Source: Coriobacteriaceae bacterium (GTDB taxonomy: Bacteria > Actinomycetota > Coriobacteriia > Coriobacteriales > UMGS124). From it: 64,000 bases of DNA. The notes beneath the pieces are model-generated. The model was not told the DNA's origin. It did no database searches and saw only the letters and a program-made list of their open reading frames with translations. Shown here one piece after another: positions 3,022-31,880 of this stretch. The stretch is taken from contig JAHZGC010000002.1 in NCBI GenBank assembly GCA_019421015.1, positions 156,436 to 220,435 on the forward strand, written 5' to 3'. Both the position numbers and the translations under genes were made by a program. Every line of letters begins with the position of its first letter. Position 1 is the stretch's first letter.

Positions 3022-3212
3022 GGACAAGATGGCGACTTTCTCGACCGATTGGGGTTCTCGAGGGCGGCCTGTGGACGAGACCGCGACTTTCTCGACCGGT
3101 TCTAGCCCTGACCGCGTTGGGGTCCTGTAGGTGCGCTCTTTCTACCTGCGGTGTTGTTGTGCGGTCTCACGACTCGCCTACGGAGTTGGTCGAGAAAGTC
3201 GTGGTTTTGTCC
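3022..3212. repeat. Three copies of a 25-nt unit GGAC(R)A(R)A-N5-GACTTTCTCGACC (two direct, one inverted)
   Basis: The copies are ggacaagatggcgactttctcgacc (3022-3046), ggacgagaccgcgactttctcgacc (3073-3097), and the reverse complement of 3188-3212, which reads ggacaaaaccacgactttctcgacc. Confidence 0.8.
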
Positions 3213-3268
3213 GCCGGGCGATTGGCCCACGGGCGATTGACCCGCCCCGCCTCGCCGGAGGCGGCCCT

Positions 3269-3523
3269 TTATACCAGCTCGCCCACCGTTACCGAGCACC
3301 CGTCCCGGATGCCCGCGGGCACGGGCTCGTCGAAGGCATGGGAGCGCGGCGCGATGTTCTCGCCATCGAACCAGTAGGCCGTGGTACGCCCCGCCATGGG
3401 GTCGACAACCCAGTACTCGCGCACGCCCGCGTTCTCGTAGCGCCCGAGCTTGCGGATGTAGCCTCGGCGGCGGGTGGAGGGGGAGACGACCTCGGCCATC
3501 AGGTCGGGAGCTCCCTCACGGCC
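3269..3523 (-). pseudogene. Uma2/DUF820-family endonuclease, C-terminal fragment only
   Basis: PDLMAEVVSPSTRRRGYIRKLGRYENAGVREYWVVDP matches the Uma2 core motif. The N-terminal half is missing and the upstream part of the ORF is not protein-like. Confidence 0.55.
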
Positions 3524-3538
3524 GAACCAAAAATGGGC

Positions 3539-3653
3539 CCCGGGCGGAGAGACCCGGGGCCCCAGGAGAGGGAGGCAAGAGAAGAGGCGGCCGTCCGTTC
3601 CCTGGGGGTTGGGGGCCGGCGGAGAAGCCGGCCCCCACAGGAGAGGGAGGCAA
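3539..3653. repeat. About 75-bp tandem duplication; each copy is a GC hairpin followed by CAGGAGAGGGAGGCAA
   Basis: The 16-mer caggagagggaggcaa occurs at 3563-3578 and 3638-3653. Each copy is preceded by a GC-rich inverted repeat, for example gggggccgg-cggagaag-ccggccccc at 3611-3636. Confidence 0.7.
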
Positions 3654-3907
3654 ACCAATGCCGCGCGGTGCTCGGAAGATGCGCTCGTGTGGTATGTCGG
3701 TGCGCTGGCTCCTTGCGACGATGAGAAGAATACCCGATGGGTCCTGTGGTGTCAACCAAGGCTAACAACCGATGAGAAACAAAGGTTAACCTTGCATAAC
3801 TTCTTCACATCCAGCTTGACGAGCGGGGAATGTATGGCGAGGCGCGGTCTCGTTGCGGAAAGCGCCGTCGCGCTTGCGGCTGCGACGGCGGTCGGCGTTG
3901 CGCGTGC

Positions 3908-4193
3908 CCGCGACGGCCCTGCCTGGCACCAAACCTTCGTTGTGTAAGGGCGACGTGCCCCAAATGGCACCAAATTCGAGTTGTGAAACTGTCGGAAGGC
4001 GCGACCGCCCGCTTTGGTCAGCAGACGATTTACACAACCCGGGTTTGGTGCCATTCTCATCCATCGACTCTTACATAACGGGAGTTTGGTGCCATTCTCT
4101 GGCCAGCTCTTTTACACAACGGGAGTTCGGTGCCAACCATGGCCGTCGGTTCTTGCGCAACTCCGATTTGGTGCCATCCGGACTCCCCATGCT
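3908..4193. repeat. 41-bp-periodic array of a 24-nt unit TTACACAAC-N5-TTTGGTGCCA; two inverted copies then four direct copies
   Basis: Reverse units lie at 3924-3947 and 3965-3988. Forward units lie at 4030-4053, 4071-4094, 4112-4135 and 4153-4176. Spacing is exactly 41 bp within each arm, with variable 17-nt spacers. Confidence 0.85.
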
Positions 4194-4251
4194 CGGCTCG
4201 CCCACGGGGCGTTTCGCCATTGGGCCCGGCCCCCGCCGCCGGTCCGGGCCT

Positions 4252-4296
4252 TCTCCAAAACGCGGGAGGGCCCGCGGTCGTCCCGAGGGCCCTCCC
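4252..4296 (-). terminator. Intrinsic terminator downstream of the ABC operon
   Basis: A 10-bp stem (GGGAGGGCCC / GGGCCCTCCC, 4264-4273 and 4287-4296) is followed on the minus strand by GCGTTTTGG. It lies 52 nt after the stop of the last ATPase gene. Confidence 0.6.
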
Positions 4297-4347
4297 ATCG
4301 CGTTCGCGTTCTGTGCGTGCCGGTGCTACCTGCTTAAGCCGCTCGCC

Positions 4348-5423
4348 CTACCCCAGCGGGTGGTGGCAGGCAACCATGTGGCCGCCGCCGAGGTCGCGCA
4401 GCTCGGGGCTCTCCTGCTTGCAGACCTCGGTGCAGTAGGGGCACCGAGGGTGGAAGCGGCAGCCGCTCGGCAGGTTGATGGGGCTCGGCAGCTCGCCCAG
4501 CACGGCGGCCTTCTTCTCGTCGGCGCGGTCGGCCTCCATGGAGGGGGCGGCGGCCAGCAGGACGTTGGTGTAGGGGTGGCGCGGGTTGTCGTAGAGGGCC
4601 TCGGTGTCGGCGGTCTCGACCATGCTGCCCAGGTACATCACGGCCACGCGGTCGCTGATGTAGCGCACCACGCGCAGGTCGTGGCTGATGAACAGGATCG
4701 AGAGGCCCAGCTTGTCCTGCAGGTCGATGAGCAGGTTGATGATCTGGGCCTGGATCGACACGTCCAGGGCCGAGACCGGCTCGTCGGCGATGATCAGTTT
4801 GGGCTGCACAGCCAGGGCACGGGCGATGCCGATGCGCTGGCGCTGGCCGCCGCTGAACGCGCTGGGCAGGCGCTCGGCGTGCTCCTCCGAGAGGCCTACG
4901 AGCTCCAACAGCTCGGAGATACGCTTGTCGACTTCGGCCTTGGGGCACATCTTGTGGTGGAGCAGCTCCTCGCGCAGCACCTGGCGCACGGTCATGCGCG
5001 GGTTCAGCGACGAGTAGGGGTCCTGGAAGATCATCTGGATGTCTTTGCAGCGGTCGCGCAGCTCCTTCTTGGTGAGCTCCGAGAAGTTGGTGCCGGCAAA
5101 GACCACGCGCCCGGCGGTCGGGCGGTACAGGTTGATGACCGTGCGGGCCAGCGTGGACTTGCCGCAGCCCGACTCGCCCACCAGGCCCAGGGTCTCGCCC
5201 TCGTTCAGGGTGAACGACACGTTGTCGACGGCGGTGAGCTTTTGCTTGGGCCTGCGCAGGATGGCGTCGAACACCGTGTGCTTGAGGGGGAAGCTCTTGC
5301 TGAGCTGGCTCACCTCGAGCAGGGTCCGGGGCTTCTCCGCCGCCTCGGGGTCGGCTTTTTTGGGGTCGACGCTCAGGTCGTCGACCTCGAGCAGCACATC
5401 GTCTTTCATGGACTGCTGGGTCA

Positions 5424-5424
<1 letters not shown>
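4348..5424 (-). CDS. ABC transporter ATP-binding protein, OppF/DppF type
   Basis: Walker A is GESGCGKST, the signature is FSGGQRQR, and Walker B is LIIADEPVSALD. The oligopeptide C-terminal Cys motif is GCRFHPRCPY. The start MTQQSM at 5424 overlaps the upstream stop (TAATG). The 1013-aa ORF in the track is a read-through artefact. Confidence 0.92.
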
Positions 5425-6485
<1,061 letters not shown>

Positions 6486-6497
6486 GGGTGTCTCCTC

Positions 6498-7379
6498 CTA
6501 ATCCTTGGTCCGCAGCAGGTCGTTGAGGCCGTCGCCCAGAAGCGAGAAGCCCAGGCCCACGACGGCCATGACCACGCCGGGCATCGTCGAAATCCACCAG
6601 TACCCGCCGGTGATGAACGACTTGCCGTTGCTGATGATGGCGCCCCACTCGGGGGTGTTCGGCGGCACGCCGAGGCCCAGGAAGCTCATGGAGGCCGCGG
6701 TCATGATGCACATGACGATGTCGGAGGCGGCGTAGACCACCGAGCTCGAGATGACGTTGGGCAGGATGTGGCGCATGATGATCGAGAAGTCGCTGTAGCC
6801 CAGGGTCTTGGCGGCCTGCACGTACTCGGAGTTCTTGGCGATGAGGACCTCGGAGCGCACGAGGCGCGTGTAGGGCGGCCAGCTCACGATCCACATGGCG
6901 ATGAGCAGGTTCATGACGCCGTTGCCCAGGATGGCCACGATGGCGATGGCCAGGACCATGAAGGGGAACGCCACAAAGATGTCGAGGATGCGCATGATGA
7001 TGGCGTCGAGCTTGCCGCCGTAGTAGCCGGCGATGAGGCCGAGCAGCGAGCCGAGCACAAAGGGCAGGGCCACCGAGCCCAGGCCGATGAGCAGGTCGAG
7101 GCGCGTGGCGTGGATCACCAACGTGTAGATGTCGCGGCCGTAGTTGTCGGTGCCGAACCAGTGCTCGGCGCTCGGCGGCTGGAGCATGGCCAAGAAGTCC
7201 ATGGCCGTGGGGTCGCCCGGGGCGAACACGTTCGGGAAGGCGGCCACCAGGCAGGTGAGCGCAACGAGCACGACGCCTACGAGCAGGCTGGGGCTGCGGC
7301 GCCACACCGAGATCTTCTTGGGCTTGTAGGCCGGAGCGGCCGGGGCAGGGGCCGCGGCGACGGTAGCGGTGTCGCTCAT
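6498..7379 (-). CDS. ABC transporter permease, OppC/DppC type
   Basis: This is a multi-TM protein with a BPD_transp_1-like core (SEYVQAAKTLGYSDFSIIMRHILPN). It overlaps the upstream permease gene by 4 nt. Confidence 0.9.
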   Translation of the reverse strand: MSDTATVAAAPAPAAPAYKPKKISVWRRSPSLLVGVVLVALTCLVAAFPNVFAPGDPTAMDFLAMLQPPSAEHWFGTDNYGRDIYTLVIHATRLDLLIGLGSVALPFVLGSLLGLIAGYYGGKLDAIIMRILDIFVAFPFMVLAIAIVAILGNGVMNLLIAMWIVSWPPYTRLVRSEVLIAKNSEYVQAAKTLGYSDFSIIMRHILPNVISSSVVYAASDIVMCIMTAASMSFLGLGVPPNTPEWGAIISNGKSFITGGYWWISTMPGVVMAVVGLGFSLLGDGLNDLLRTKD

Positions 7380-8329
7380 GCCTCGTCACCTCCCAGCTTG
7401 ATGCGGTGGTCGAGCACCGAGTACAGGATGTCGGTCAGAAGGTTCACCACGAGGGTGATGATCACAAAGACGAGCACGCAGGTCTGGACCACGGCGTAGT
7501 CGCGGCCGGTGACCGCCTGGACGAGCAGGGCGCCGATGCCCGGCAGGCCAAAGATGTTCTCGATGATCACCGAGCCCGAGAGCATGCCGATGATGCGCAT
7601 CGAGAGCAGCGTGGCCGTGGGGATCAGGGCGTTGCGCAGCACGTAGCCGGTGGAGATGACCCAGCCCGAGAGGCCCTTGGAGCGGCCGAAGTCCACGTAG
7701 TCGGTGTTGCGCACGTCCACCACGTTGTTGCGCACGTTACGGATGATGACCGCGATCGAGGCGAAGGCCAGCGTGATGCCCGGCAGGACCAGGGAGTAGA
7801 GGTGCTCTCCCCAGGTCTTGCCCCAGCCCGAGACCGGGAAGAGCTGCAGGTTCACGCCAAAGATGATGAGGAGCACGAGGCCCACCCAGAACGACGGCGC
7901 CGCCAGGCCGATGAGGGCGAACAGGCGGATGATGACGTCGGGCAGCTTGTCCTTCATGGCACCGGCGATGTAGCCCAGCGGCAGCGCGATGATGACGGTG
8001 AAGACCGTCGCGGTCAGGGCCAGGCAGATGGTGGTGATCATGCGGGTGCCGACCAGGGTGCTGACCGGCTCCTTGTAGATGATCGAGGTGCCCAGGTCGC
8101 CCTGGAACATGTTCCCGACCCAAATCACGAACTGGTCCCACAGCGAGGCGTTGAGCCCCATCTTCTCTTTGAGCGCTTCGTACACTTTGGGGTCGATCTT
8201 GTCCCCGAGCGTAGCCAGGGCGGCGTCACCGGGTAATAGGCGCATAAGCAGGAATATGGCCACGACCGAGATGACGAGCACTGGAATCATCTGCAGCAGG
8301 CGCCGCAGGATATAGCGCAGCGTTTCCAC
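7376..8329 (-). CDS. ABC transporter permease, OppB/DppB type
   Basis: The N-terminus (V)ETLRYILRRLLQMIPVLVISVV is typical of OppB. The GTG start at 8329 is preceded by AGGAGGAG. The core motif is DYVDFGRSKGLSGWV. Confidence 0.88.
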   Translation of the reverse strand: METLRYILRRLLQMIPVLVISVVAIFLLMRLLPGDAALATLGDKIDPKVYEALKEKMGLNASLWDQFVIWVGNMFQGDLGTSIIYKEPVSTLVGTRMITTICLALTATVFTVIIALPLGYIAGAMKDKLPDVIIRLFALIGLAAPSFWVGLVLLIIFGVNLQLFPVSGWGKTWGEHLYSLVLPGITLAFASIAVIIRNVRNNVVDVRNTDYVDFGRSKGLSGWVISTGYVLRNALIPTATLLSMRIIGMLSGSVIIENIFGLPGIGALLVQAVTGRDYAVVQTCVLVFVIITLVVNLLTDILYSVLDHRIKLGGDEA

Positions 8330-8661
8330 CCCTCTCCTCCTTTCACTTTCTGGCGCGCCGCTGCGGAGCTGCGCGGCGCTTCCTCCCCTTGTGAGGGTCG
8401 ATTGTAACCCACCCATCGTTCAGATGAGAGGCCCACGGCATCGGGAGCGCCTCAAGGGCGCGTATGGCAATGCCGGGGGTTTCTCAGCTGACCGAAGGCA
8501 CCGCCGCACGGCTGCGTCTGCACGCGCCCTGCGGCGGCCACCCTGTCTACCCACATCGACGCGAAAGGGGCCGCGAACAACCGTAAGTCGTCCACAGCCC
8601 CCCAATTACGCTGTGTGAGAGCGGCCCCTCCTGCAGGAAGGGCCGGCGCCCGCCTGGTCGG

Positions 8662-10212
8662 TTACGCCTTGGCGAGCTCGTCGAAGCGGAAGTTGCCGAG
8701 CGGCGTCTGGATCCAGCCGGTCACGTCGTTGCGAAGTGCGTTGTTCCACGGCGTGTTGAGCAGCGGGATGAAGATGCCCTCGGAGGCGAAGCCCTGCTGG
8801 ATCTGGAAGTAGAGCTCCTTGCGCTTCTCCACGTCGATCTCGACGGTGGCCTGCTCGTTGAGGGCCACCATGTCCTCGGGCTGGTGGAAGTTGCTGTAGT
8901 AGCCGCAGTTCACGTTGAAGTCAAAGATGAACTGCATGAGCTGGGTGGGATCCTGGACGTCGTCGCTCCAGCCGGAGATGATGATGTCGAGGTCCATGGC
9001 CTTGCGGGCCTCGGAGTATGCGGTGGCCTCGCGCTGGTCGAGCTCGATGGTGACGCCGATCTGGGCCCACTGCTGGGTCAGGACCATGGCGATCTGCTCA
9101 TAGGTGGCGTTGCCGCCGCGAAGGAGCATGCGGAGCTTGAAGCCGTCGGCGTAGCCGGCCTCGGCGAGCAGGGCCTTGGCGGCCTCGACGTCGGCCACGG
9201 GCGGCTGCAGGCTCAGGTCGCAGTACTCGGAGGTGGGGTTCAGGACCGAGCCGGCGGCCGTGGCGAAGCCGTAGGAGAGGGCGTCGACGAACTGCTGGGC
9301 GTCGGTGGCCTTGAAGAGGGCCTCGCGGACCTTCTCGTTTGCCAGGTACTCGTTCTCCACGTTGAGCGAGATCCAGTAGACCATGGTCGAGGGGTCGGCC
9401 TCGGGGGTCACGTTGGGGTCGCTCTCAAGCTGCATCATGGTGGAGAAGGGCAGGTCGGTGGTGGCGTCGATGTCGCCGCCCTGGAGTTGGATGGTGCGGG
9501 CCGCGTCGTCGGCGACGACCTTGAACTCGATCTCCTCGGTCAGGGGCAGGCCCTCGAGGCGATAGTGCGGGTTGGCCTGCATGGTCAGGTACTCGCCCTT
9601 CTTCCACTCCTTGATGACGAAGGGGCCGACGCCGATGGGGCCGTCTACGTACTTCTCCTCGCCCACCTCGTCGAAGTAGGCCTTGGACTGCACGCCCAGG
9701 GTGAAGATGCAGAGGTTGGCCAAGGTGGAGGCGGCGGCGACCTTGGTGGTCACGATGACCGTGGTGTCGTCGGGGCACTCGACCTTGTCGATGTTGGCGA
9801 CGCACTCATGCCAGTTGGAGTCGGTGGTCTGCATGGCGCGATCGAAGGTCCACTGCCAGTCGTCCTTGGTGACGGGGTCGCCGTTGGAGAAGACCAGGCC
9901 CTCCTGCACGTGGAAGGTGTAGGTGGTGCCGTCCTCGGAGACCTCCCATTCGGTGGCGAGGCAGGGCTCGATGGACTCGCCGTCGTCGGAGGTCTTCACG
10001 AGACCGTCGAGGATGAGGTTGAACAGGAAGATGTTCTGGTTGCCGATGCAGGTGACCGGGTCGAGGTTGTCGGCGTCGGTGGGACGGCCGATGACGATGC
10101 GGCTGCCGGGGGTGGCTGCCTGGGCGTCAAGGGTGAGGCCGCCGAAAGCGGCGGCGCCGGCGAGGGCGGCTGCGCCCTGCAGGAACGAACGGCGGTTGAG
10201 CGTGAACTCCAT
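8662..10212 (-). CDS. ABC transporter substrate-binding protein, family 5 (peptide/nickel)
   Basis: The start MEFTLNRRSFLQGAAALAGAAAF is a twin-arginine-type signal, with AAGGAGG 6 nt upstream. The body is SBP_bac_5-like and the gene is first in the operon. Confidence 0.9.
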   Translation of the reverse strand: MEFTLNRRSFLQGAAALAGAAAFGGLTLDAQAATPGSRIVIGRPTDADNLDPVTCIGNQNIFLFNLILDGLVKTSDDGESIEPCLATEWEVSEDGTTYTFHVQEGLVFSNGDPVTKDDWQWTFDRAMQTTDSNWHECVANIDKVECPDDTTVIVTTKVAAASTLANLCIFTLGVQSKAYFDEVGEEKYVDGPIGVGPFVIKEWKKGEYLTMQANPHYRLEGLPLTEEIEFKVVADDAARTIQLQGGDIDATTDLPFSTMMQLESDPNVTPEADPSTMVYWISLNVENEYLANEKVREALFKATDAQQFVDALSYGFATAAGSVLNPTSEYCDLSLQPPVADVEAAKALLAEAGYADGFKLRMLLRGGNATYEQIAMVLTQQWAQIGVTIELDQREATAYSEARKAMDLDIIISGWSDDVQDPTQLMQFIFDFNVNCGYYSNFHQPEDMVALNEQATVEIDVEKRKELYFQIQQGFASEGIFIPLLNTPWNNALRNDVTGWIQTPLGNFRFDELAKA

Positions 10213-10496
10213 GCATGACCTCCTTGTTCGGTGCCCCGACGTCTGAGTCGGCGGGGCAGGCAAATATCCGCGCTTGAGGACGACGTGATGCGTTTGAATC
10301 CGACGGCCTATGGGAGAGCTGATGACCGAGCGTGGATAAAAAAGTATTTTGAACCTTGAATGGGCCGCATGTGAAGAAGAAGTGATGCATTTTTGCAGGT
10401 TGGAAACAAACGGCGGCTTTGGGTCGGTGGCCGGGTTTGGGATAGCTCCGAGGGGGGTAATCCGCCTGGGCCCTTGGGGGCCGGCGGATCGCGTGG

Positions 10497-10776
10497 GGAC
10501 GAGACCCTTGGGGGTCGCCGTGGGGTGGACGAGATCCTCGGGGGCGCTCCCGGGGGGACGAGATTGGGACTTTGTGACTTAGGCTGGGGTTGAGATGACA
10601 GGAACCCCCGTTTTGCGACTCACTTTTAGAGTAGCATCTAAGTAGTTTTGGTATCACCGCAGGTACAGTTTGCATCGAGCGTCGCATCGCCCTGGTATCC
10701 CGGCAAAACCGAGTCGCAAAGTCCCCATCTCTGCCGCGGCCACCCCCGGATGAGTCGCAAAGTTACGATTTCGTCC
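10497..10776. repeat. Cluster of GGACGAGAT...GACTTTGCGAC units in direct and inverted orientation
   Basis: ggacgaga starts at 10497, 10527 and 10556, a period of about 30. The unit ggacgagattgggactttgtgac is at 10556. Inverted copies gagtcgcaaagtccccatctc (10711) and gagtcgcaaagttacgatttcgtcc (10752) follow. gaacccccgttttgcgactc lies at 10602. Confidence 0.8.
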
Positions 10777-10918
10777 AGACCCGGGCTGCGGTTGCCGTCG
10801 GGGCGTTTGGTTGCGGGGGTGTTTCGGAGGCGGTATTAACCTATTCAACAGGTAGGTAATTGCGCTAAGCTACGGCCGACGATCTACGGCTGGCCCCGAC
10901 GAAAGGCAGGCATACACC

Positions 10919-12280
10919 ATGGGCGACTCCAAGTTAGACGGCTACAAGTTGGAAGATGGCAGGTCGGGCGAGCACAAGCCAAGCGACCGCGGGTCGGGCG
11001 AGCGCCGCTACAGGTTCGAGACCCTCCAGCTCCATGTGGGGCAGGAGCAGGCCGACCCCGCCACCGACTCCCGCGCCGTCCCGATCTACCAGACGACCTC
11101 GTACGTGTTCCACGACTGCGACCATGCCGCTGCCCGCTTCGGCCTCTCCGATGCCGGCAACATCTACGGCCGCCTCACCAACTCGACCCAGGATGTGCTC
11201 GAAAGGCGCATCGCGGCGCTCGAGGGCGGCGTCGCGGCCCTGGCCACGGCTTCGGGGGCGGCGGCCATCACCTACACGCTGCAGGCCCTGGCCCAGGCGG
11301 GCGACCACATCGTGGCCCAAAAGACCATCTACGGCGGTACCTACAACCTGCTTGCCCACACGCTGCCCCAGTTCGGCGTGACCGCGACGTTCGTGGACGC
11401 CCACGACCTCGCGGAGCTCGAGGGGGCGATTCAGGAGAACACCAAGGCCGTCTACCTCGAGACGTTGGGCAACCCCAACTCCGACATCCCCGACATCGAC
11501 GCCGTTGCCCAAATCGCCCACCGCCACGGCCTGCCGCTCGTGGTGGACAACACCTTTGGTACGCCCTACCTGGTCCGGCCGCTCGAGCACGGGGCCGACA
11601 TCGTGGTGCACTCCGCCACCAAGTTTATCGGCGGCCACGGCACCACGCTCGGCGGCATCATCGTGGACGGCGGCTCCTTTAACTGGGCGGGCGCCGGCAA
11701 GTTCCCGGCTATCGCCGACGCGAACCCGAGCTACCACGGGGTGAGCTTTGTAGAGGCCGCCGGCCCCGCCGCCTTCGTGACCTACGTGCGCGCCATCCTG
11801 CTGCGCGACATGGGGGCGACCATCTCGCCGTTCAACGCGTTTTTGCTGCTCCAGGGCGTGGAGACGCTCTCGCTTCGTCTTGACCGCCATGCCGAGAACA
11901 CCAAGGCCGTGGTGGAGTTTTTGGCGGGGCACCCGCTTGTGGAGAAGGCCAACCACCCGAGCCTGCCCGACCACCCCGACCACGCGCTTTACGAGCGGTA
12001 TTTTCCCAACGGGGGAGGCTCGATCTTCACCTTTGACATCAAGGGCGGCCGGGAGGAGGCCTTTAGGTTCATCGACAACCTCGAGGTCTTCTCGCTGCTG
12101 GCCAACGTGGCCGACGTCAAGAGCCTCGTGATCCATCCGGCCACCACGACCCACTCACAGCTGAGCGCCGCCGAGCTCGAGGAACAGGGGATCCACCCCA
12201 ACACGATCAGGCTCTCGATCGGCACCGAGCACATCGACGACATCATCGCCGACCTCGAGCGCGGGTTCGCGGCGGTGTAA
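10919..12280 (+). CDS. metY: O-acetylhomoserine sulfhydrylase (PLP-dependent, Cys/Met metabolism family)
   Basis: Matching blocks are [41 protein letters not shown] and [21 protein letters not shown] (PLP-Lys region). The roughly 40-aa N-terminal extension makes the start slightly uncertain. Confidence 0.9.
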
Positions 12281-12405
12281 GGGCTGCGGGCAGGGATGAG
12301 GAGCGGGACGGGGGGCATGGAAGGAGGCTGACTGGAGGGCTGGGGTCTGGGAGCTGGGAGCCGGGGCGGTTATATCAATTTGTTTTTGTATTTCTCACTT
12401 TTCCA

Positions 12406-12635
12406 GAAATGCGCCCGCAAAAAGGCCCATCGTGTACCGTGTGAGTATTGATACATGGAAGTGTATCAGTCTGTGAAGTATAGTTGGCAGAAAAATGCCT
12501 GGTAGACGGGTTGTCAAAAGCGCAAGACCATGAGGTTGGAGCAGGTCGGTCGGCTTTGGACGGGCCGAGGGGCCCAGAAACCGCCGGCGGAGGCGGACGT
12601 GCGGTGCACGAACCCCCATTTTGCGGGTGCATTTC
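12406..12635. repeat. MITE-like 230-bp element with 20-bp terminal inverted repeats
   Basis: gaaatgcgcccgcaaaaagg (12406-12425) matches the reverse complement of 12616-12635 (gaaatgcacccgcaaaatgg) at 18 of 20 positions. The interior is lower in GC and holds the dyad TGATACA-N6-TGTATCA at 12449-12468. No credible ORF is present. Confidence 0.6.
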
Positions 12636-12828
12636 CTGCCGTGAGGGGCTATATGCTCACTCTTGATGCTATTTTTTAGTAGTTTGACATAAATCGCTGC
12701 CAGACAGGCGGCCACCCCCCGCCGGTCGATGCCTGGCTTGCACGGTTGCAACGGCGGCGGGGCCGCAGGGGTCATCGTCGCCCCGCCGCCCCGCCGTATC
12801 CGTGCAGGTCTTTCTTTGTTGCGAGCCC

Positions 12829-14391: not shown

Positions 14392-14977
14392 GGTGATCCC
14401 CTTGTCTCATGTCGTGACGTCGCACGGGGCGGCGCCTGTCGGGTGGGTGCGGCGCGGACTGCGCAGGCGGGAGGCCCGCGGGTATAGGCCGCGTCGCTGG
14501 GGCACACTGTAGGCGGCGCCTCTGGGGATACGGTCGCATAAAAGGGACGGTTGTTTGCGGTTTATGGGGCGGCGTAGGCGGAGAAACCCTCGCATCCAAA
14601 AGACGAGTTGCCGGTGACGAGCTGGTATTACAGTGAGTTAATGGGATTGGCGGCCCCTATGGGGAGGGCTTGACCCGACAAGTCTCCCGTGCAGGTCTCC
14701 CCTTGTTGCGCCTCGTACCGAATGCATCCCGCGCAAGGAGTGGACACGTTCGGAGGCCAACCCAGAAACCCAGACACCCAAAACCCAGAAACGCCTCGAG
14801 GGCGTGAATTTGTTTAAGAACATGATATTATACTTGCAATGGTTCATATCTTACCTGGGGCTATACTATCCGCCTCCATATATCGAGCATCAAAGTATGT
14901 AACAACCCACACCCTCGAGACATTTTTGGGTTTCCGGGCAGCCCCGACGCCTCTGGGGTCGACCGCGTGGGGCCGCG

Positions 14978-16453: not shown

Positions 16454-16575
16454 GGACGGCTCCTTTGGCTCGGGGGGTGAGACGCGATGCTGCGAGGATA
16501 CCACCGATGACCCGTCGTGCCACGGTTTCGTGGTACCGAAGATCGATTGCCCCGATCGGTGCCGCCCCGTGGGTT

Positions 16576-16593: not shown

Positions 16594-16664
16594 CTTCGTC
16601 CGTGGAGCTCGGGGTCGTGCTGTGCTACCGTGCGGAGAAACCCCGCTCAGAAAGGACGTTGCCC

Positions 16665-19241: not shown

Positions 19242-19320
19242 GGGCGGCCTCCTGGGTCTCGGGGTTGCCATGGTGGGACGGCCACCGGTGACATTGTGCA
19301 AAATCGCAGGTCGAAGCCGC

Positions 19321-19338
19321 TCACATCATTGATGGGAG
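19321..19338. promoter_or_regulatory. Conserved 18-mer TCACATCATTGATGGGAG, copy 2
   Basis: It is identical to 16576-16593. A half-site-like CATTGATG recurs at 19363-19370. It lies in the divergent LuxR/flavoprotein intergenic region. Confidence 0.3.
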
Positions 19339-19449
19339 AGAGAAAAACGCCCAGATTCCCACCATTGATGCCGCGCGTTCGAGCCGGGCTTCTCTACCTT
19401 ACAGCACAAGCACCTATCCCGTGCCCACAACCAGAAAGGAAGAACCGTT

Positions 19450-21084: not shown

Positions 21085-21171
21085 GGGGCGCCTGCGGGGC
21101 GCTGCGCACGTTGCGGTCGTCCTCTATGCCCCGCAATGTCAAACCCGAATAGCTCCTGGAGTCATTGAAGG

Positions 21172-21214
21172 AAAAACGCCTGGCACCCGTGCGATGGTGC
21201 CAGGCGTTTATATT
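21172..21214. terminator. Bidirectional intrinsic terminator between convergent flavoprotein genes
   Basis: A perfect 12-bp stem ACGCCTGGCACC / GGTGCCAGGCGT (21176-21187 and 21196-21207) has an 8-nt loop. It is flanked by AAAAA upstream and TTATATT downstream. Confidence 0.75.
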
Positions 21215-21288
21215 GTGCGGAGCGTGGCGAGCTACGGCGAAAAGTCCGACCCTGCGCCCCGTATTACTTGATTGCCGGCAAGGTGCCG

Positions 21289-23283: not shown

Positions 23284-23503
23284 GGCCTTCTCCTTTTCCT
23301 ATTGCAACCTTATGCGTATGCTTATGCACCTGAGGCGCCGGCCCCGGGTGCCGCTGACGAGGCCCACTGTAGCCCCGCGCTTTGCGGCGGCGCGACGCGA
23401 CAAGTTGGTGATTTGGACGCGGCGAGCAGTTCACCAAAAAGTGATTACAGTCGTTGAGCTGGCATTTCAAGAAGGGTACCGGGTAGACCCTCCCTCGGGG
23501 GCC

Positions 23504-25135: not shown

Positions 25136-25445
25136 GGCACTACCAAAAGTTATTGCCGCAAGGCGCGGCAGGGTGCGGTGTGCTGGGGCACATGAGCCCT
25201 GGCATAACGCCGGTGGCGGCAATTCTTGGATCGCTCTAGAACCCCACCCGGTTTGGGGGGTATGGGATTTACCCGCTTCAGGGCTGGTTGCCAGGCAACG
25301 GTTTGGCCGATACAGGGCACACGCCTACATCGAGGCCAATGGCCTCTTTGGCGTCGAGCCCAGCGGTCCCATCGCTGGTAACCTCGCCGATGGCCAGGAG
25401 GCGCGCTCTCTGGGCGCCGCTTTCATCCGCAAGGCCGAATCGGTC

Positions 25446-25706
25446 ATGAACAAAAACGACCTGGGTCTCGACGGCAGCACCCCCCAGACCGTCACATCTG
25501 AGTCCTGCCCCGAACTCTTCGAGCGTGTCGGAAAGATTATGGGCGTGGACGTCGAGAGCTGCACCCTCAAGTGCGATGTGTCCACCATCGTGAGCGAGAC
25601 CGTTCGCGGCAACCATGAGACCTACACCTATCTCGTGACGTACATGGACGCCGTAATCGACGGCGTTGAGGTTATTTACGAGAACGGCACCTACTCCATC
25701 GCATAG
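25446..25706 (+). CDS. Hypothetical small protein (86 aa; may extend upstream without an ATG)
   Basis: The sequence MNKNDLGLDGSTPQ...YTYLVTYMDAVIDGVEVIYENGTYSIA is protein-like and lies in a lower-GC patch. I recognised no family and the RBS is weak. Confidence 0.35.
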   Translation: MNKNDLGLDGSTPQTVTSESCPELFERVGKIMGVDVESCTLKCDVSTIVSETVRGNHETYTYLVTYMDAVIDGVEVIYENGTYSIA

Positions 25707-25833
25707 GGCCCGTGTCCCCAGCCCATTCATGAAGACGGCCGATGCGCGTCGTGCGCCTCGGCCGTCCTTGGTGGATAATCGAGTTGGGACACGAATTGCG
25801 TGTGAGGGGGGAGCGTTGAAGGGGAGAACGACG

Positions 25834-26444
25834 ATGAGGGCGCTAGGCATGGGCGTCTTCTGGGGCTGGTTCGACTCGGCTGTGATGGGGTCCCAGGTGA
25901 GGTTGAGGCTCGGGGGTTCCGGCGCCCCGATGGAGTCGTTCGTGCTGGCGCTTGCGGTCGGTGCCATGGCAATGGTTCTCGCTTCTGTTTTCCCGAAGGC
26001 GTTTCGTTCGTCTACCTGTTCGAGGCGCTGGGGGTGGTGGCGGCGATGGCGGCGCCGGCACAGAGCCTTGTTCCAGGCGCCGGAAGGCCTGTTGCCGTTG
26101 CAATGGCATTTGTCCTAACGGTCGGGTGCATCCTTGTTTTTGATAACGACTCGGGTCTCTGGACCCAAATTGGCTTCGGCGGTGGAGGATTGGTTCCTGA
26201 AGGGCCTGGCGAGACATCGCTTGCAGAGCTTTGCAGGTTGCGTGGACTTACAACTAGAGAAGCCGAAGTCGCGGCCTTTTTAGCGGAAGGCAGGAGCTAC
26301 AAGGTCATAGCCGAGAAACTTTTGGTGTCGCAAGATACCATCAAAGGTCATGTCAAAGCGATTTATCAAAAGTTCGATGTTCATACGAAGCAGGATTTCA
26401 TCGAGCTTGTGTCGAGTGTTGAATCCAGCGAAGAGGTTCGATGA
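25834..26444 (+). pseudogene. Internally deleted and frameshifted membrane LuxR remnant
   Basis: ATG 25834 has a GGGGAG RBS and opens with MRALGMGVFWGWFDSAVM.., which is homologous to the first TMs of the 23504 regulator (ACLFWLWLDAAVF). The frame switches near 25995-26005. The downstream frame (26034..26444) carries two TMs plus the HTH LTTREAEVAAFLAEGRSYKVIAEKLLVSQDTIKGHVKAIYQKF. Confidence 0.6.
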
Positions 26445-26522
26445 TTTGTGGGGAGCGCCGAGCAGCTCTGCCTCAGCTGCCATCACGCCAACGTCTACGA
26501 GTGCCAGATCTGCCACGCGTAG
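26445..26522 (+). pseudogene. 3' relic of a multihaem cytochrome c gene
   Basis: It translates as FVGSAEQLCLSCHHANVYECQICHA*, with two CxxCH motifs. It is collinear with the C-terminus of the 59859..60503 cytochrome (CTNCHHANVFACGTCHQ*). It begins directly after the LuxR remnant's stop codon. Confidence 0.6.
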
Positions 26523-26638
26523 GAGGTCGGGCACTGCGGTTTTGAGAATACGAGCCACCGCTCATGTTTAGTGGGGGCGGTCGGTTGTATGGGCAACCGG
26601 CTGCCCCGCGGCGATCCCCGTTCCGCCACTATCCCCCA

Positions 26639-26647
26639 TGCTACAAT
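26639..26647 (+). promoter_or_regulatory. Possible extended -10 (TGcTACAAT) for the HipA-like gene
   Basis: The sequence tgctacaat ends 28 nt before ATG 26676. No convincing -35 is present. Confidence 0.3.
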
Positions 26648-26675
26648 CCCTCCCACATCGACGAGGGGAGGTGCC

Positions 26676-27923
26676 ATGGCTCTGGAACCGGCCGGCTGCA
26701 AGCGCGAGCCGCTGCGGCGCACGCTCATGTGCAAAGACGCGGAGGTGCTGCGGTTCTCCTACGACCCCCTGCGGCGCGTGGTGGTCGGCAAACCGGAGGT
26801 GCTCGACGAGCGGTACCTGCCGCTGGGAGCGCTCGGCCATGACGGCCGGTTTGGCAAGGGTCCCCTCGCATCGTGGCTGACCGGTCGTGGCGTGCCGCTG
26901 TCGAGGCCGGGGCTTTCTCCCGTTCTGAGCTCGCTTGGCCTTGCTAGCCCCGAGGAGCTGCAGGTTGCCGAGCTGGGCCTGTCGCTTTCGGACCACTACT
27001 GGTTCAGGCCGCCCGATCGCGACGACGTTCGCTGGGAGACGGTGAACTTCTTCGACCATCCGTTCTCGCCCGAGTTGGGCGAAGCCCTGGCGCCCCACGA
27101 CCCCGATTCGGGCTCGGCCGCCCTGCGCCGGGTGGAGGAGGACGGCCTGGTGGTGACCTCGTCGCCCGATGCGGCTCTGAACGGTAATCTGCCCAAACGG
27201 TGGCAGATTGCGCCCGATGGCACGCGGGTCCTGGTCAAATCGGGAAAGGCGGCGAACCTGTTTCAGGAGCCGTTCAACGAGGTTGTTGCGACGGCCCTAT
27301 GCCGGCGTATCCTGCCACAAGGGACGTATGTTCCTTACGAGCTGCAGCCCAACGGATATCCGTCTTTCCTCTCGACGTGCCCGTGCATGGTTGACAAGGA
27401 CCACGAGCTGGTGATTGCCGGCGACGTGGTGCGGTCTCACAAATCCGACCCCTCGAAGTCGCGCTACGAGAACTTTGCCGAGATCTGCGAGGGCCACGGG
27501 GTACCCGACGTTCGGCTTGGCCTGTCGCGCATGCTTGTGGTAGACCACATCGTGGCGAACTTCGACCGCCACTGGGGGAACTTCGGCGTCATCGTCGAGA
27601 CCGAGACGCGCCGATGGGTTGGGCTTGCCCCCATCTACGACACCGGCGAGAGCCTGTGGTGTGACCGGGCGCTGGCGAACGACTTTAGGCCTTATACGAA
27701 GGCGCTCTACCCCATGCCGTTCTCCACGGACATTTCGAGCCAGGTGGAACGCTACGCGGGGGACCTTGGCTGGTTAGACCCCGAGGCGCTCGACGGGTTT
27801 GTCGACGAGGCCGTCGACGTGCTCGCATGCAACCGCGAGGTTGCTGCGATGCCGGGCAGGCTCGAGGGGATCCGGGCGGCGCTGGGGCGCACGGTGCAAG
27901 ACGTGCTGAGAGCGCGGGGCTAA
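26676..27923 (+). CDS. HipA-like serine/threonine kinase with no adjacent HipB
   Basis: The HipA_C-type catalytic loop is VANFDRHWGNFGV, the Mg-binding motif is LAPIYDTGESL, and the P-loop-like motif is ALNGNLPKRW. The start has GGGGAGG 6 nt upstream. Confidence 0.75.
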   Translation: MALEPAGCKREPLRRTLMCKDAEVLRFSYDPLRRVVVGKPEVLDERYLPLGALGHDGRFGKGPLASWLTGRGVPLSRPGLSPVLSSLGLASPEELQVAELGLSLSDHYWFRPPDRDDVRWETVNFFDHPFSPELGEALAPHDPDSGSAALRRVEEDGLVVTSSPDAALNGNLPKRWQIAPDGTRVLVKSGKAANLFQEPFNEVVATALCRRILPQGTYVPYELQPNGYPSFLSTCPCMVDKDHELVIAGDVVRSHKSDPSKSRYENFAEICEGHGVPDVRLGLSRMLVVDHIVANFDRHWGNFGVIVETETRRWVGLAPIYDTGESLWCDRALANDFRPYTKALYPMPFSTDISSQVERYAGDLGWLDPEALDGFVDEAVDVLACNREVAAMPGRLEGIRAALGRTVQDVLRARG

Positions 27924-27942
27924 TTTCAAAGAGGGGGCACCC

Positions 27943-28827
27943 ATGGACTTTGCCCAGCTGTCGTGCTTTGTGCGCGCCTACGAGTGCGGGAACTTCTCCC
28001 AGGTGGCGGCCGACCTGTACTTGGCCCAGACGTCGCTGACCTACCGCATCGCGAGCCTCGAGAAGGAGCTGGGCTGCGAGCTGTTTGTGCGCACCAAGCG
28101 CGGGGTGGTCCCCACGGAGGCGGCTCGAGCGGCCTATGGCGAGGCGGTGGCCCTGATCCAAGGAGAGGGGCGCCTGCGGGAGGCTGCCTACACCGCCGCC
28201 GAGAAGCGCCGCGCCCTGGTGCGGGTGGGGTTCAACCGTTATCCGGGAATACCGTCGTTCTTCGAGGCGGTTGACCGCTACCGCGCCGCCCACCCCGACA
28301 TCGCGGTGGAGACCGACTTCACCTATCTCGAGAACCCGTCGGCTGCCCTGGAGGCGGGCACGCACGACGTGGTGCTCCTGCTCGACTACGAGGGGCGTTC
28401 CTACACCCCGCAGACCTTCGAGCCGTTGGGAGAGCTGCGCTACCACGTCACGATGGCGTCGGGCCATCCTTTGGGCGCGCGTCCGGAACTTGGGCTCGAG
28501 GACCTGCGGGGCCAAACCGTGTACGTGCTCAAACCGCTGGTCAACAGCGCGTTCCAAGTGCCCTCGGTGGAGGAGCTGCGCCGGTGTGGGGCTGTGGTGG
28601 ACGACACTCTCACCGACAACGAGCTTCTTTTGCTCGCCATTCGCCGTGGCAGCGGCGTCAGCGTGTACCCGTCGTTGGGAACGGCCGCCCAGGAGGGTTA
28701 CACCCGCCGCCCGCTGGTGGACTGCCCTCCGCTGCCCTACGGGCTGCTGTTCTCGGAGGACCGCCTGACGCCGGCGGCGCGCGGGTTTATCGGCTGTGTG
28801 AGGGCGGCCATGGTGGCTGAGCGGTAA
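27943..28827 (+). CDS. LysR-family transcriptional regulator
   Basis: The N-terminal HTH is MDFAQLSCFVRAYECGNFSQVAADLYLAQTSLTYRIASLEKELGCELFVR, followed by a LysR substrate-binding fold. It starts 19 nt after the HipA-like stop. Confidence 0.9.
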   Translation: MDFAQLSCFVRAYECGNFSQVAADLYLAQTSLTYRIASLEKELGCELFVRTKRGVVPTEAARAAYGEAVALIQGEGRLREAAYTAAEKRRALVRVGFNRYPGIPSFFEAVDRYRAAHPDIAVETDFTYLENPSAALEAGTHDVVLLLDYEGRSYTPQTFEPLGELRYHVTMASGHPLGARPELGLEDLRGQTVYVLKPLVNSAFQVPSVEELRRCGAVVDDTLTDNELLLLAIRRGSGVSVYPSLGTAAQEGYTRRPLVDCPPLPYGLLFSEDRLTPAARGFIGCVRAAMVAER

Positions 28828-28849
28828 GCGGTGGGCGGCAGAGAGAAGC

Positions 28850-28886
28850 GCAGGCCGGGTCTGCAGATTGCACGGGCCCGGCCTGC
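28850..28886. terminator. GC hairpin between convergent LysR and flavoprotein genes (no U-tract)
   Basis: GCAGGCCGGG (28850-28859) pairs with CCCGGCCTGC (28877-28886), a 10-bp stem. Confidence 0.3.
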
Positions 28887-28913
28887 GGGGCCACGCGGGG
28901 TTTGCGCGCGTCT

Positions 28914-30758
28914 CTACAGCAGCTCGGCGGCTAGGGTCTGGGCCATGCGGTAGCCAAAGGCCATGGCGGTGCTGTAGCCAAAGCCGTAGTGGATGCCGTC
29001 GCGCTCCTCGGGCGAGGCGGTCACGTCGCCGGCGGCGTAGAGGCCCGGGATGGGCTCGCCGGCCTCGTTGAGCAGGTGGGTGTCGACGTCGATGGTAAGG
29101 CCGGCCGTGGTGAGGTAGAAGTTGGGGGTCACCGGGAGCACCCACACGCCGTCGCGCGTCTCGATGTACACGGGCGCCCCCCATGTGCCGGGTGTGGCCT
29201 CGGCCGCGGCGGCGTTGTGGGCCTCGAGCGCGGCGGGGAGGTTGGTCAGCCCCAGGGCCTCCACCGCGGCCTCGACCGAGTCGTAGCGCACGGCCTCCCC
29301 GCGGTCGAAGATGGGGGCGTAGGTCTTCATACCGTAGGACTCGTTGTCGCGGGCCTTGCAGGCCGAGGAGTCGTCGAACACGTAGTAGAAGGTGTCCTCG
29401 TTGGCGGGGTCGAGCTTGACGATCTCACCGTTGGTGTGGCTCACGGCCGAGCCGAGGTCGGTGCCGTTCACGTTCACAAAGAGGCCCGGGGCCGTGTTGC
29501 CGATAAAGGCGAGCTCCACGCCGCTCTTGGCGGTGGCCAGGTAGGCAGGCATGTAGCGGCCGATGCAGGTCATGGGCGAGCCGGCCTCAAGACCCATACG
29601 GATGCCGTCGCCGGTGCTGGCGCTGCAGCAGTTGAAGAACTGGTCGGCGTGGTCAGGGCAGTACTCCTTGAGCATGTCGACGTTCTTGGCAAAGCCGCCC
29701 GAGGTGAGGCATACGGCCTTGGCGTGCACGGTGTACGTGGTGCCGTCGTCGCCTTGGGCGTTGACACCCACGTAGGCGCCGGTTTCGTCCTGGATCAGGT
29801 CGGTCACGGTGGTTGAGTAGATGATCTGGCCGTTGTCGAACTGGTCGATGCGGTTGGCGAGGAACATGGTCTGGTAGCCCGCGCCGCCGCAGTACATGCC
29901 CGGAGCAGACGAGAGGAGCATGCCGTAGGAGGCCGCGCCCTCGTAGGTGCCCAGGGTCATGAAGCCCATGCCGATGGAGCTCATCCAGTCGGCCATCGGC
30001 CCGGCCACGCTGTAGGTCGCGCGCGAGAAGGGCAGCTCGCCGTTGGACACGTCTTCGATGACCTGGGGCTTGAGGCTCTCGATCTTGGCCTCGAGGTCCA
30101 TCATGGCGGTTCCCTCGTAGACGCCCTTCACGTCAAAGGCGCGCTGGCGCTCGGAGCCCACGGCCTGCACGCCGCCCATGGTCATGCTCGCGGAGCCGCC
30201 AGGGATGTCGAGCTTCTCGATCACCACCACAACGAGGCCGTCCTCGACCATGCGGGCCGCGGCCACGAGGCCCGCGGTGCCGCCTCCCACCACCACGACG
30301 TCGGCCTCAAGGTCGACGTGCTCGGTGGAGACGGGCTTCTGTACCGGTGCCGAGAAGGCCTCGACCGAGCGGCCCGAGAGCTCGATGGCCTGGCGCACGG
30401 CCTCCTTGACGGCGCACGAGGTCACGCCCGCGCCGCGCACGTTGGGGACCTCGATGCTCTGGGCGGCCACGATGGCGGCGGGGATGCGGGCGGCCGCATA
30501 GCTGCCGATGCCGATGGTCTCCTCATGGGAGACGACCTGGCAGGCGGTGATGGCGTCGCCGGCGAAGGTGGTGGTGACGTTCACCCAGGTCTCGTGGCCC
30601 ATGGCGCGGGTGGTGAACTGGCCGTCGACGGGCTCGCTGGGAAGCTCGGGGGCGGCGTCGGCCCGGGCGGTTTGGGGTCGGTTGGCCGCGGCGCCGGCGG
30701 CGATGGCGGTGGCGACGCCTGCGGCTGCGGTTACAAAGTTGCGGCGCGTGATGTCCAT
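28914..30758 (-). CDS. Tat-exported flavoprotein reductase with N-terminal FMN_bind domain plus FAD_binding_2
   Basis: The Tat signal is MDITRRNFVTAAAGVATAIAAGAA. The FMN_bind block is VVSHEETIGIGSYAAARIPAAIVAAQSIEVPNVRGAG, the FAD fold is DVVVVGGGTAG, and the C-terminal region is GLYAAGDV. The start at 30758 follows GAGAGGA. Confidence 0.9.
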   Translation of the reverse strand: MDITRRNFVTAAAGVATAIAAGAAANRPQTARADAAPELPSEPVDGQFTTRAMGHETWVNVTTTFAGDAITACQVVSHEETIGIGSYAAARIPAAIVAAQSIEVPNVRGAGVTSCAVKEAVRQAIELSGRSVEAFSAPVQKPVSTEHVDLEADVVVVGGGTAGLVAAARMVEDGLVVVVIEKLDIPGGSASMTMGGVQAVGSERQRAFDVKGVYEGTAMMDLEAKIESLKPQVIEDVSNGELPFSRATYSVAGPMADWMSSIGMGFMTLGTYEGAASYGMLLSSAPGMYCGGAGYQTMFLANRIDQFDNGQIIYSTTVTDLIQDETGAYVGVNAQGDDGTTYTVHAKAVCLTSGGFAKNVDMLKEYCPDHADQFFNCCSASTGDGIRMGLEAGSPMTCIGRYMPAYLATAKSGVELAFIGNTAPGLFVNVNGTDLGSAVSHTNGEIVKLDPANEDTFYYVFDDSSACKARDNESYGMKTYAPIFDRGEAVRYDSVEAAVEALGLTNLPAALEAHNAAAAEATPGTWGAPVYIETRDGVWVLPVTPNFYLTTAGLTIDVDTHLLNEAGEPIPGLYAAGDVTASPEERDGIHYGFGYSTAMAFGYRMAQTLAAELL

Positions 30759-30973
30759 GGACGGGTCCTCTCGTGTTCGGTTGGCTTGGGAATGCGCCGA
30801 ATACGATAGATGCGAGCTGGAGGTTTCGTCCAATAGAGAAAGCTGTGCCCGGTGCGCGGAAAATTCGCGCACCGGGCACGGGGATGAGATGGGGGGTGGG
30901 TTGTGCGGGTTAGGGCAGTCCACAAACATACCGGCGCCTCGTTGCGCTCGGGCTTATGTGCCCTGGCACGCCG

Positions 30974-31396
30974 CTAGCATGCCGCGCCCTCGCGCGCCTT
31001 GCCCGGCAATTCTGCGGACTGCTCTAGCCGCGCGGCGCGCCGGTACTCCGACGGCGTCTGGCCGGTAACCCGCTTGAAGGCGGCCGCGAACTTGCTGGGG
31101 TTGGCGTAGCCCACGGCCAGGGCCGCGGCGGTCACCGGCTGGCCTTGGCCCAGCAGCACGCAGGCCTGCTCCACGCGGCGCTGGCGCAGGTACGAGGCGA
31201 CGGTGGAGCCGTAGAGGCCGAGAAAGTAGTTGTTGAGCGTGGCCGCGCTCACGTTGTGCCGGCGCGCTATGGCGCGGGCGTCGTGGGGGAGGGCCAGGTC
31301 GCTCTCCAGCTCGGCGCGCGTCTGGGCGGCCAAGGCTATCTGCGAGCGGGTGAGCAGGGACCCCGGACGTGCGTGGCGAACATCGCAGGAGGCCAA
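30974..31396 (-). pseudogene. AraC-family HTH domain only (N-terminally truncated)
   Basis: Both HTH_18 helices are present (ARRHNVSAATLNNYFLGLYGSTVASYLRQRRVEQA.. / AAALAVGYANPSKFAAAFKRVTGQTPSEYRR). There is no ligand-binding domain and no ATG in the ORF, only TTG at 31396. Confidence 0.5.
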
Positions 31397-31593
31397 GGCG
31401 AGCGAGAACGAGGGTGCGGGTCCGTCGCGCCTTCCGGGCGGCGCCGGGGAGGGTCTCCGCGGGTGCGGGATTCTCTGGCGGGGCTCTGACCTGGGGTTTT
31501 GCAGGCTTGCTGATGGCGGGCGCCCTCGGGGGCCGAGTGGCCGGGCATCGGAGGCTGTCAGGCGGGTGCCGAGGCGTGGCCCGCGCCTAGCCA

Positions 31594-31880
31594 GAACCCC
31601 CTTTATGCGGAAGCATCTCGGCTTTGGAGGTCGTGGCCGCCCCCGGGGTGTCGGGCCTTGGCCAAGAGCGGCACCCTGCGACCCGTCCGGGGCCGTGCTG
31701 GCCGGCCCGAGCTTTGCGGCCGGGTTGGGGCGGCCGTGGCAGAAATCGGGACTTTGCGACCCGGTTTGGTCTGGCCGGTGCAGTGGGGCTACTGTGTGCG
31801 GGCCTTGTGCCTGCGATGATACTGACTAACCTTTGAGTGCTACCCCAAAAGCGAGTCGCAAAGCTCGGATCTTATCTGCC
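31594..31880. repeat. Repeat cluster: a 28-mer GAACCCCCTTTATGCGGAAGCATCTCGG plus direct and inverted GACTTTGCGAC units
   Basis: The 28-mer at 31594-31621 recurs at 54927-54954 with 3 mismatches. ggcagaaatcgggactttgcgaccc lies at 31738-31762, and its inverted partner gagtcgcaaagctcggatcttatctgcc at 31853-31880. Confidence 0.75.

Follow-up and report, generated by a model that had tools for sequence, protein, structure and literature searches.

The 64,000-nucleotide stretch of DNA analysed here, hereafter the window, belongs to a Coriobacteriaceae bacterium (contig JAHZGC010000002.1, positions 156,436 to 220,435) and carries three copies of a repeat, termed family B, at the loci L1, L2 and L3. 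Each copy is a foldback module in which asymmetric boxes of 23-25 nt are arrayed in two inverted arms around a centre. The three modules are homologous over boxes, spacers, centre and tail, whole modules and single box periods are present in some strains and missing from others, and the boxes have changed less than the DNA around them. The reading preferred here, held tentatively and with somewhat less than even confidence, is that family B is a low-copy, dispersed, non-coding module of ~200-300 bp, similar in kind to miniature inverted-repeat transposable elements (MITEs) and to BOX elements, and that its arms are arrays of putative protein-binding boxes.

According to this reading, the module would have spread as a MITE or BOX element does, copied as a unit to intergenic positions that have nothing else in common. 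Its arms would then grow and shrink by whole periods, and the entire module could also be deleted. The boxes are predicted to be sites for one sequence-specific DNA-binding protein, several protomers of which might load on each arm and bring the two arms into contact across the centre, in a synapse or loop to which the layout of two convergent arrays is suited. This binder may be a transposase or recombinase belonging to the element, or else a regulator of the host that has come to use the sites. The analysis covers ~64 kb of this genome and ~100 kb from relatives, the latter reached by exact-protein look-ups.

Architecture and homology of the three modules

The 25-nt units that an earlier sequence-only reading of the window had listed are real, each of them being present where that reading had placed it. 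The consensus GGACGARAT-N3-GACTTTGCGAC, with up to 3 mismatches allowed, matches the window four times against 0.00 expected (100 shuffles), and the 8-mer TTTGCGAC occurs six times in 64 kb, with five of the six occurrences inside L2 and L3. The units of L1 miss this consensus because they are a variant with one extra base (GACTTTCTCGAC). Beyond the listed units, 10611-10619 holds a half unit, and 31660-31682 and 31700-31720 each hold a decayed one, these last two being spaced at periods of 38-40 nt.

In L1, a tail at 3010-3021 reads GGAGCCGGGCT(T) on the minus strand and is homologous to the L2 tail in the three-way alignment of the modules (alignment A3). It is followed by two plus-strand boxes offset by 51 nt, box a at 3022-3046 (GGACAAGATGGCGACTTTCTCGACC), which is the outer box of the two-box arm, and box b at 3073-3097 (GGACGAGACCGCGACTTTCTCGACC). 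The centre (3098-3187, of minus element polarity; A3; nhmmer E=1e-50) contains CACCGCAGGTAGA, which is common to L2 and L3, and the single box of the other arm, box c at 3188-3212, lies on the minus strand and reads GGTCGAGAAAGTCGTGGTTTTGTCC on the plus strand.

L2 begins with an outer left arm on the plus strand (10495-10555), a G-rich repeat with a 30-nt period that holds two truncated boxes (GGACGAGA at 10497 and 10527). The truncated repeats and their period of about 30 bp had already been described from the sequence, and Tandem Repeats Finder reports the same array at 10495-10564, with period 30 and 2.4 copies. Box a follows at 10556-10578 on the plus strand (GGACGAGATTGGGACTTTGTGAC), and then the centre (10579-10710, plus polarity; A3), where the half box TTTTGCGAC occupies 10611-10619 and the shared motif CACCGCAGGTACA occupies 10655-10667. 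Two minus-strand boxes offset by 41 nt complete the module, box b at 10713-10735 (GTCGCAAAGTCCCCATCTCTGCC on the plus strand) and box c at 10754-10776 (GTCGCAAAGTTACGATTTCGTCC on the plus strand), together with the plus-strand tail AGACCCGGGC at 10777-10786. The tail is taken as the approximate right edge of the module, because DNA shared with the relative L036 restarts a few bases downstream.

L3 holds, on the plus strand, the decayed boxes at 31660-31682 (GGCCAAGAGCGGCACCCTGCGAC) and 31700-31720 (GGCCGGCCCGAGCTTTGCGGC), the second of which is similar to the inner boxes of a distant copy, L061, and box a at 31738-31760 (GGCAGAAATCGGGACTTTGCGAC). Its centre (31761-31854, minus polarity; A3; nhmmer E=4.5e-53) is homologous to the L2 centre (…GTAGCAC…GTATCATCGCAGGCACA…), and the single box of the opposite arm, at 31855-31880 on the minus strand (GTCGCAAAGCTCGGATCTTATCTGCC on the plus strand), has a longer internal spacer than the other units.

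When L2 is read on the plus strand and L3 and L1 on the minus strand, the three loci align over ~230 nt that include boxes, inter-box spacers, centre and tail. Motifs common to the centres are …GTAGCA… and CACCGCAGGTACA, and the common tail is AGACCCGGGCT. An nhmmer profile built from A3 detects these three modules in the window and no others (E-values 1e-50 to 1e-53), as well as orthologues in related strains. The order of parts has a fixed polarity: one box (in L2 with the truncated ones ahead of it), the 90-130-nt centre, two or three boxes of opposite orientation, and the tail. The TTTGCGAC end of every box is directed at the centre, the number of boxes per arm differs among L1, L2 and L3, and the arm periods are 30 nt in the outer arm of L2, 41 nt in L2 and L3, and 51 nt in L1. 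Inverted arms of 20-33 nt with 78-90% complementarity are found at all three loci, as in the terminal inverted repeats of a MITE, and single-strand folding gives z-scores of -2.5, -1.5 and -3.6 across the three modules.

The units therefore belong to one dispersed repeat family, as had been proposed, and the homology of centres, spacers and tail points to copying of the whole module, not to operators that evolved independently at each site. The further proposal, that each locus carries its own homogenised variant, holds for L1, whose units are distinct, and fails for the other two loci, where identity between L2 and L3 (0.84) exceeds that within L2 (0.78).

Variation among strains and more distant copies

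The module is absent from some orthologous sites, as is seen for MITEs. In L036, whose pyridoxal-phosphate (PLP) enzyme beside L2 is 93% identical to that of the window, both flanks of L2 are kept and ~300 nt including the module are replaced by ~68 unrelated nt. In L069, the flanks are nearly identical and positions 10468-10753 are gone, so that a single box (box c) and the tail are left. This state is most simply read as a deletion, since the module is present in both strain lineages. At L3, orthologues of the adjacent reductase in L071 and L072 (91% and 86% identity) keep their LysR neighbour, and the AraC gene and L3 are absent upstream. No family B box was found in 33 kb of DNA around these two orthologues.

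The arms themselves also vary. At L1 the window has 2+1 boxes, L035 has 1+1, and L034, L067 and L068 have 1+2, and the steps are exact 51-nt periods: the period of box a is absent from L035 and from the L034 lineage, which has one additional period at box c. Thus, the local array dynamics suggested by the sequence-only reading are borne out, with arms gaining or losing whole 51-nt periods between strains, and box copy number varies between loci and strains as it does in BOX-like modular repeats.

Beyond the close relatives, a scan of metagenome contigs with GGMMGARATNNNRACTTTGYGAC gave 26 single matches, among which the profile recognized as true relatives only L052 (the same locus), L061 and L045. 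L061 (G+C content 59%) carries 2+2 boxes with a 40-41-nt period beside a tRNA-Arg gene and its terminator, and L045 carries one box at the contig start, 210 nt upstream of a methyltransferase-like gene; both keep boxes or half-sites and not the centre. The same scan of genome contigs, a collection that does not include the window's species, gave 22 single matches in unrelated taxa, against ~35 expected by chance on a rough estimate. The viral contigs gave no matches to GGMMGARATNNNRACTTTGYGAC, and blastn of L2 against plasmid and phage collections found none either. Two contigs, L045 and L070, end inside a module.

Conservation of the boxes

Constraint was assessed by comparing the lineage of the window with that of L034, L067 and L068, which share the same differences, and these differences are therefore real. 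The third codon positions of the PLP enzyme gene served as neutral yardstick, 39/454 of them having changed (8.6%). The centre of L2 has changed at about this neutral rate (14/131, or 10.7%), and its G-rich outer arm differs at 15/119 positions (12.6%) and by insertions and deletions. Family B boxes, in contrast, have changed at 3 of 124 positions, against 32 of 356 in the rest of the modules (Fisher p=0.015). The 41-bp array, a separate set of boxes in the window, gives the same picture, with one change in 138 box positions and 11 in 113 spacer positions, the latter about the neutral rate (p=0.0015). L3 is 99% identical between strains and is thus uninformative on selection.

Conservation is also uneven within the box. 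Over all boxes, the two half-sites have mean pairwise identities of 0.74 and 0.83, compared with 0.54 in the N3 spacer, and the N3 spacers within paired boxes are not complementary. Conserved half-sites with a free, noncomplementary spacer argue for recognition by a protein and not for a hairpin maintained by pairing. Unbiased gene conversion would not account for the constraint on the boxes, because such conversion leaves the substitution rate unlowered. As had been suggested from the sequence, the boxes appear to behave like protein-binding sites, conserved while spacers and centre drift, and this is what they most likely are, since selection seems to retain the boxes and not the DNA between them.

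Genomic context of the loci

The window has a G+C content of ~65% and is rich in FAD_binding_2 reductase genes paired with GerE/LuxR regulators; the closest named homologue of one of its reductases is from Adlercreutzia (51% identity), which suggests an uncultured, Eggerthellaceae-like host. L1 sits where a broken LuxR gene and a fragment of a Uma2 nuclease gene converge, between their 3' ends. The LuxR gene (1815-2950) is split over two frames, with its GerE match confined to the C-terminal helix-turn-helix, and the Uma2 gene (3269-3658) encodes a fragment of 129 aa. Both are probably pseudogenes, because they are fragmentary in related strains too. Upstream of this pair, ARAGORN calls a 97-nt tRNA-Ser (anticodon cga) at 1030-1126 within an AAA-ATPase-like open reading frame (ORF), a call that is probably spurious.

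L2 lies between a divergent pair, an Opp-like transporter operon and the gene for the PLP enzyme, which is of the O-acetylhomoserine sulfhydrylase type. The closest relatives of this enzyme (10919-12280) outside its own lineage are ~87% identical, the few named ones being labelled Butyrivibrio and Oscillospiraceae, and the codon G+C of the gene is typical of the host. An imperfect palindrome, ATTAACCTA-N9-TAGGTAAT, is found at 10835-10860, ~60-85 nt upstream of the gene, and is probably the gene's real operator, given that it is kept in L036, which does not have the family B module. L3 has a nucleotidyltransferase gene upstream of it and, 244 nt downstream, the gene for a 140-aa AraC-family protein (30974-31396), which is followed by an FMN/FAD reductase gene.

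Other foldback arrays of the window

Boxes in convergent arrays are an architecture common to family B and the other foldback families of the window. Family A (GCCAAAAC-N6-GCTGTGTAC, 2+2 boxes) forms foldback arrays at 38016-38155 and 50274-50372 and has direct units at 41745-41807. The 41-bp array (3925-4175) consists of two forward and four inverted boxes (GGCACCAAA-N5-GTTGTGTAA) downstream of the Opp-like operon, a MITE-like foldback element occupies 12406-12635, and a foldback with A-rich boxes (AAACCCAGAAAC…) and 26-nt arms of 85% complementarity lies at 14769-14938, between a reductase and a LuxR gene.

The sequence-only reading had proposed a possible superfamily made up of family B, family A, the 41-bp array and the MITE-like element, on the grounds that all have the same bipartite grammar when family B is read on the complementary strand. 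This was not borne out, the similarity of position weight matrices between family B and each of the three being at the chance level given by shuffled columns (z -0.0 to 1.7). Reading on the complementary strand also flips the box relative to the foldback centre, and the A-rich half (CAAA) is the inner one in family B and the outer one in the other three families. In the outer-to-inner orientation, family B shows a weak likeness to the three (z 1.6-2.9), with a best p of ~0.007 that fails correction for 20 tests, and this likeness counts as no more than a lead. The other box families go undetected by the family B nhmmer profile.

Family A arrays sit at the edges of two segments that are missing from a related strain (L066, 1740-3620). 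In one segment (~38.0-48.6 kb), the MatE and HipA genes enclose modules of LuxR and reductase genes, and in the other (~50.1-53.2 kb), the HipB and DUF4143 genes enclose a reductase and a MerR gene. Of the three family A loci, two precede reductase genes, at a distance of 170-220 nt. Just upstream of hipB-hipA, two identical copies of TGACTAATATATTAG (50116-50130 and 50157-50171) stand 41 nt apart, each with the palindrome CTAATATATTAG, and are likely HipB operators.

The GC skew of the window is steadily positive to ~32 kb, then near zero, and negative past 56 kb. Its cumulative maximum at ~52-56 kb could mark the replication terminus; no dif-like site was found in the window. This maximum, together with the opposed asymmetric 23-bp sites, had prompted consideration of a Ter-like replication-fork barrier, which is unlikely given that both orientations occur at each locus, that one protein would be needed per family, and that the search for a dif-like site found none.

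Alternative explanations

A purely selfish MITE relic is regarded as unlikely. Its arms would be the arrayed transposase-binding ends of an internally deleted transposon, of the Mu, Tn7, Tn402 or inverted repeat/direct repeat (IR/DR) type, and would have no host function. Such a relic would fit the inverted arms built from several asymmetric boxes, the whole-module paralogy in unrelated contexts, the absence at orthologous sites and deletion in one strain, and the occurrence of copies in other taxa, in one case next to a tRNA gene. Taken alone it is insufficient, because the constraint on the boxes is left unexplained: their conservation in situ relative to neighbouring DNA is unlike a dead copy. 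No TG/CA termini were found in the modules, either. The preferred reading, a copyable module with protein-binding boxes, has to face several of the same findings, which weigh against it. In-situ conservation of the boxes would not be expected of a purely selfish element. No clean target-site duplication was found when the filled site of the window was compared with the sites of L036 and L069 that have no module, and a domain scan of the larger ORFs flanking all three loci found no transposase or recombinase gene in the window. The copies are only ~64-70% alike (mean column identity of 64% in A3) and, judged on this divergence, are old, with no sign of a recent burst (three in 64 kb); the scans of whole collections returned almost no further copies. 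The constraint test rests on two strain lineages and small counts, and the module is dispensable in L069, which is not what an essential operator predicts. Two related proposals were rejected. A composite transposon formed by L1 and L2, which are mutually inverted around the Opp-like operon, does not agree with the presence of the solute-binding-protein gene without L2 in L036 and of the operon's upstream genes in L069; attP-like arm sites, suggested by the tRNA neighbour of L061, do not agree with three copies in 64 kb of chromosome and no integrase.

It is doubtful, and in our view quite improbable, that the boxes are simply operator arrays for paralogous regulators, either of the LuxR type or like the MarA-sized 140-aa AraC protein encoded beside L3, with one box family per regulator. 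Their size and asymmetric, bipartite form (~23 bp) are those of an AraC/XylS monomer site, their half-sites are conserved while the spacer is not, and the boxes are constrained; moreover, L3 precedes an AraC-reductase pair, the multi-box arms of L2 and L045 each have a same-strand gene 140-210 nt downstream, and two reductase genes have family A arrays 170-220 nt upstream. However, sites that lie in regulated promoters and are kept at orthologous promoters were not what was found. The sequence-only reading had proposed to test for enrichment upstream of reductase or LuxR genes, and only L3 has such a position: L1 is between convergent gene fragments, L061 is downstream of a tRNA gene, no regulator gene is found beside L2, and the LuxR-reductase intergenic regions checked do not contain family B boxes. 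The module is missing from the orthologous promoters of sister species, and neither does it occur upstream of an AraC homologue with 54% identity. Plain operators are insufficient because these positions and absences, together with the homology of the non-box DNA, are left unexplained, homologous centres and spacers implying module copying and not site-by-site evolution. A combined version, also judged improbable, would have the box arrays be regulatory sites on a copyable module, with each family (family B, family A, the 41-bp array and others) serving one paralogous LuxR or AraC regulator and helping to plug new reductase-regulator cassettes into control circuits. This would be a bacterial instance of regulatory wiring borne by transposable elements, and the family A modules at the edges of two strain-variable reductase cassettes fit it.

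Two explanations that rely on the inverted arms themselves were also weighed. A structured RNA (a small RNA, a cis-acting leader or a terminator hairpin) whose arms pair is very unlikely, even though the arms are able to pair, folding z-scores reach -3.6, and arm variants co-vary (CTCGAC/GTCGAG in L1, GCGAC/GTCGC in L2 and L3). The same co-variation is expected of any inverted protein site, the N3 spacer is noncomplementary in paired boxes, and the centre drifts at about the neutral rate; no Rfam match was obtained at gathering scores in the whole window, the intergenic regions of L2 and L3 gave none even at E<=1, and a scan for consensus signals revealed neither a promoter in the centres nor a terminator with the polarity of the element. 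An inverton, that is, an invertible promoter switch with the inverted boxes as recombination sites, is suggested by inverted repeats of 20-33 nt that flank a segment of 80-140 nt and by the position of L2 between divergent genes, and yet it is hardly credible: the L3 centre keeps one orientation across the window and 10 additional contigs of the same species, the L1 and L2 centres likewise agree with the window in four other strain contigs, no invertase gene was found among the larger ORFs scanned in the window, and several boxes per arm would be atypical.

Comparison with known systems

The comparisons that follow are of form. The BOX elements of Streptococcus pneumoniae (boxA-boxB(n)-boxC) are intergenic and a few hundred bp long, with a ~45-nt sub-module of variable copy number, complementary ends and no own transposase known. 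Family B is likewise non-coding, modular and foldback, and the copy number of its sub-module varies between loci and strains. On the other hand, the variable module of BOX is direct and lies between the ends, whereas in family B a unique centre is flanked by two inverted arms that consist of the variable periods, and what is conserved is the 23-25-nt box in each period; no sequence similarity is claimed, nor would any be expected across phyla. Correia/CREE and ERIC/IRU elements occur as many near-identical copies with single terminal inverted repeats and defined target duplications. Like family B, they are short, non-coding and intergenic, have inverted ends, are present or absent among relatives, and can carry binding sites or promoters; family B differs in having few copies of ~64-70% identity, arms of repeated boxes, and no duplication found.

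Several asymmetric sites of ~20-23 bp per inverted end, often in unequal numbers (2 + 4, as in the 41-bp array), are also seen in Mu, Tn7, Tn402/Tn5090 and Tc1-like IR/DR ends. These elements have kilobases of cargo between their ends, TG...CA termini and fixed target duplications, whereas the arms of family B are 90-130 bp apart, its termini do not match this pattern, and the window yielded no transposase. Operator arrays of AraC/XylS proteins, such as the MelR sites in melR-melAB and the MarA/SoxS marbox, are fixed features of one promoter region. They resemble family B in their asymmetric bipartite sites of 18-20+ bp, direct and inverted, with ~20-40 bp spacing and the capacity for looping, and a MarA-sized AraC gene is found by L3; family B differs in being copied as a module with homologous non-box DNA and in being absent from orthologous promoters of sister species. 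Finally, the foldback (FB) transposons of Drosophila have inverted arms of tandem sub-repeats and variable arm length, but they are eukaryotic and kilobase-sized, with much longer arms, and the analogy is one of form only.

Significance

Eggerthellaceae-like, reductase-rich gut bacteria have dozens of regulator-reductase pairs. To our knowledge, the DNA targets of those regulators have not been described. A detailed study of these LuxR regulators reports no binding sites (PMC9734109), and a limited search of the literature brought up no account of either such elements or LuxR binding sites in Eggerthella-type bacteria. Family B looks like a previously undescribed bacterial intergenic foldback repeat, with arms made of variable arrays of conserved boxes. 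If the modules are only relics of mobile elements, their value would be practical, as they break assemblies, vary between strains and could be used as strain markers. If the boxes are protein-binding sites on a copyable module, they would provide 23-bp candidate sites and would show how cis-elements spread in these genomes.

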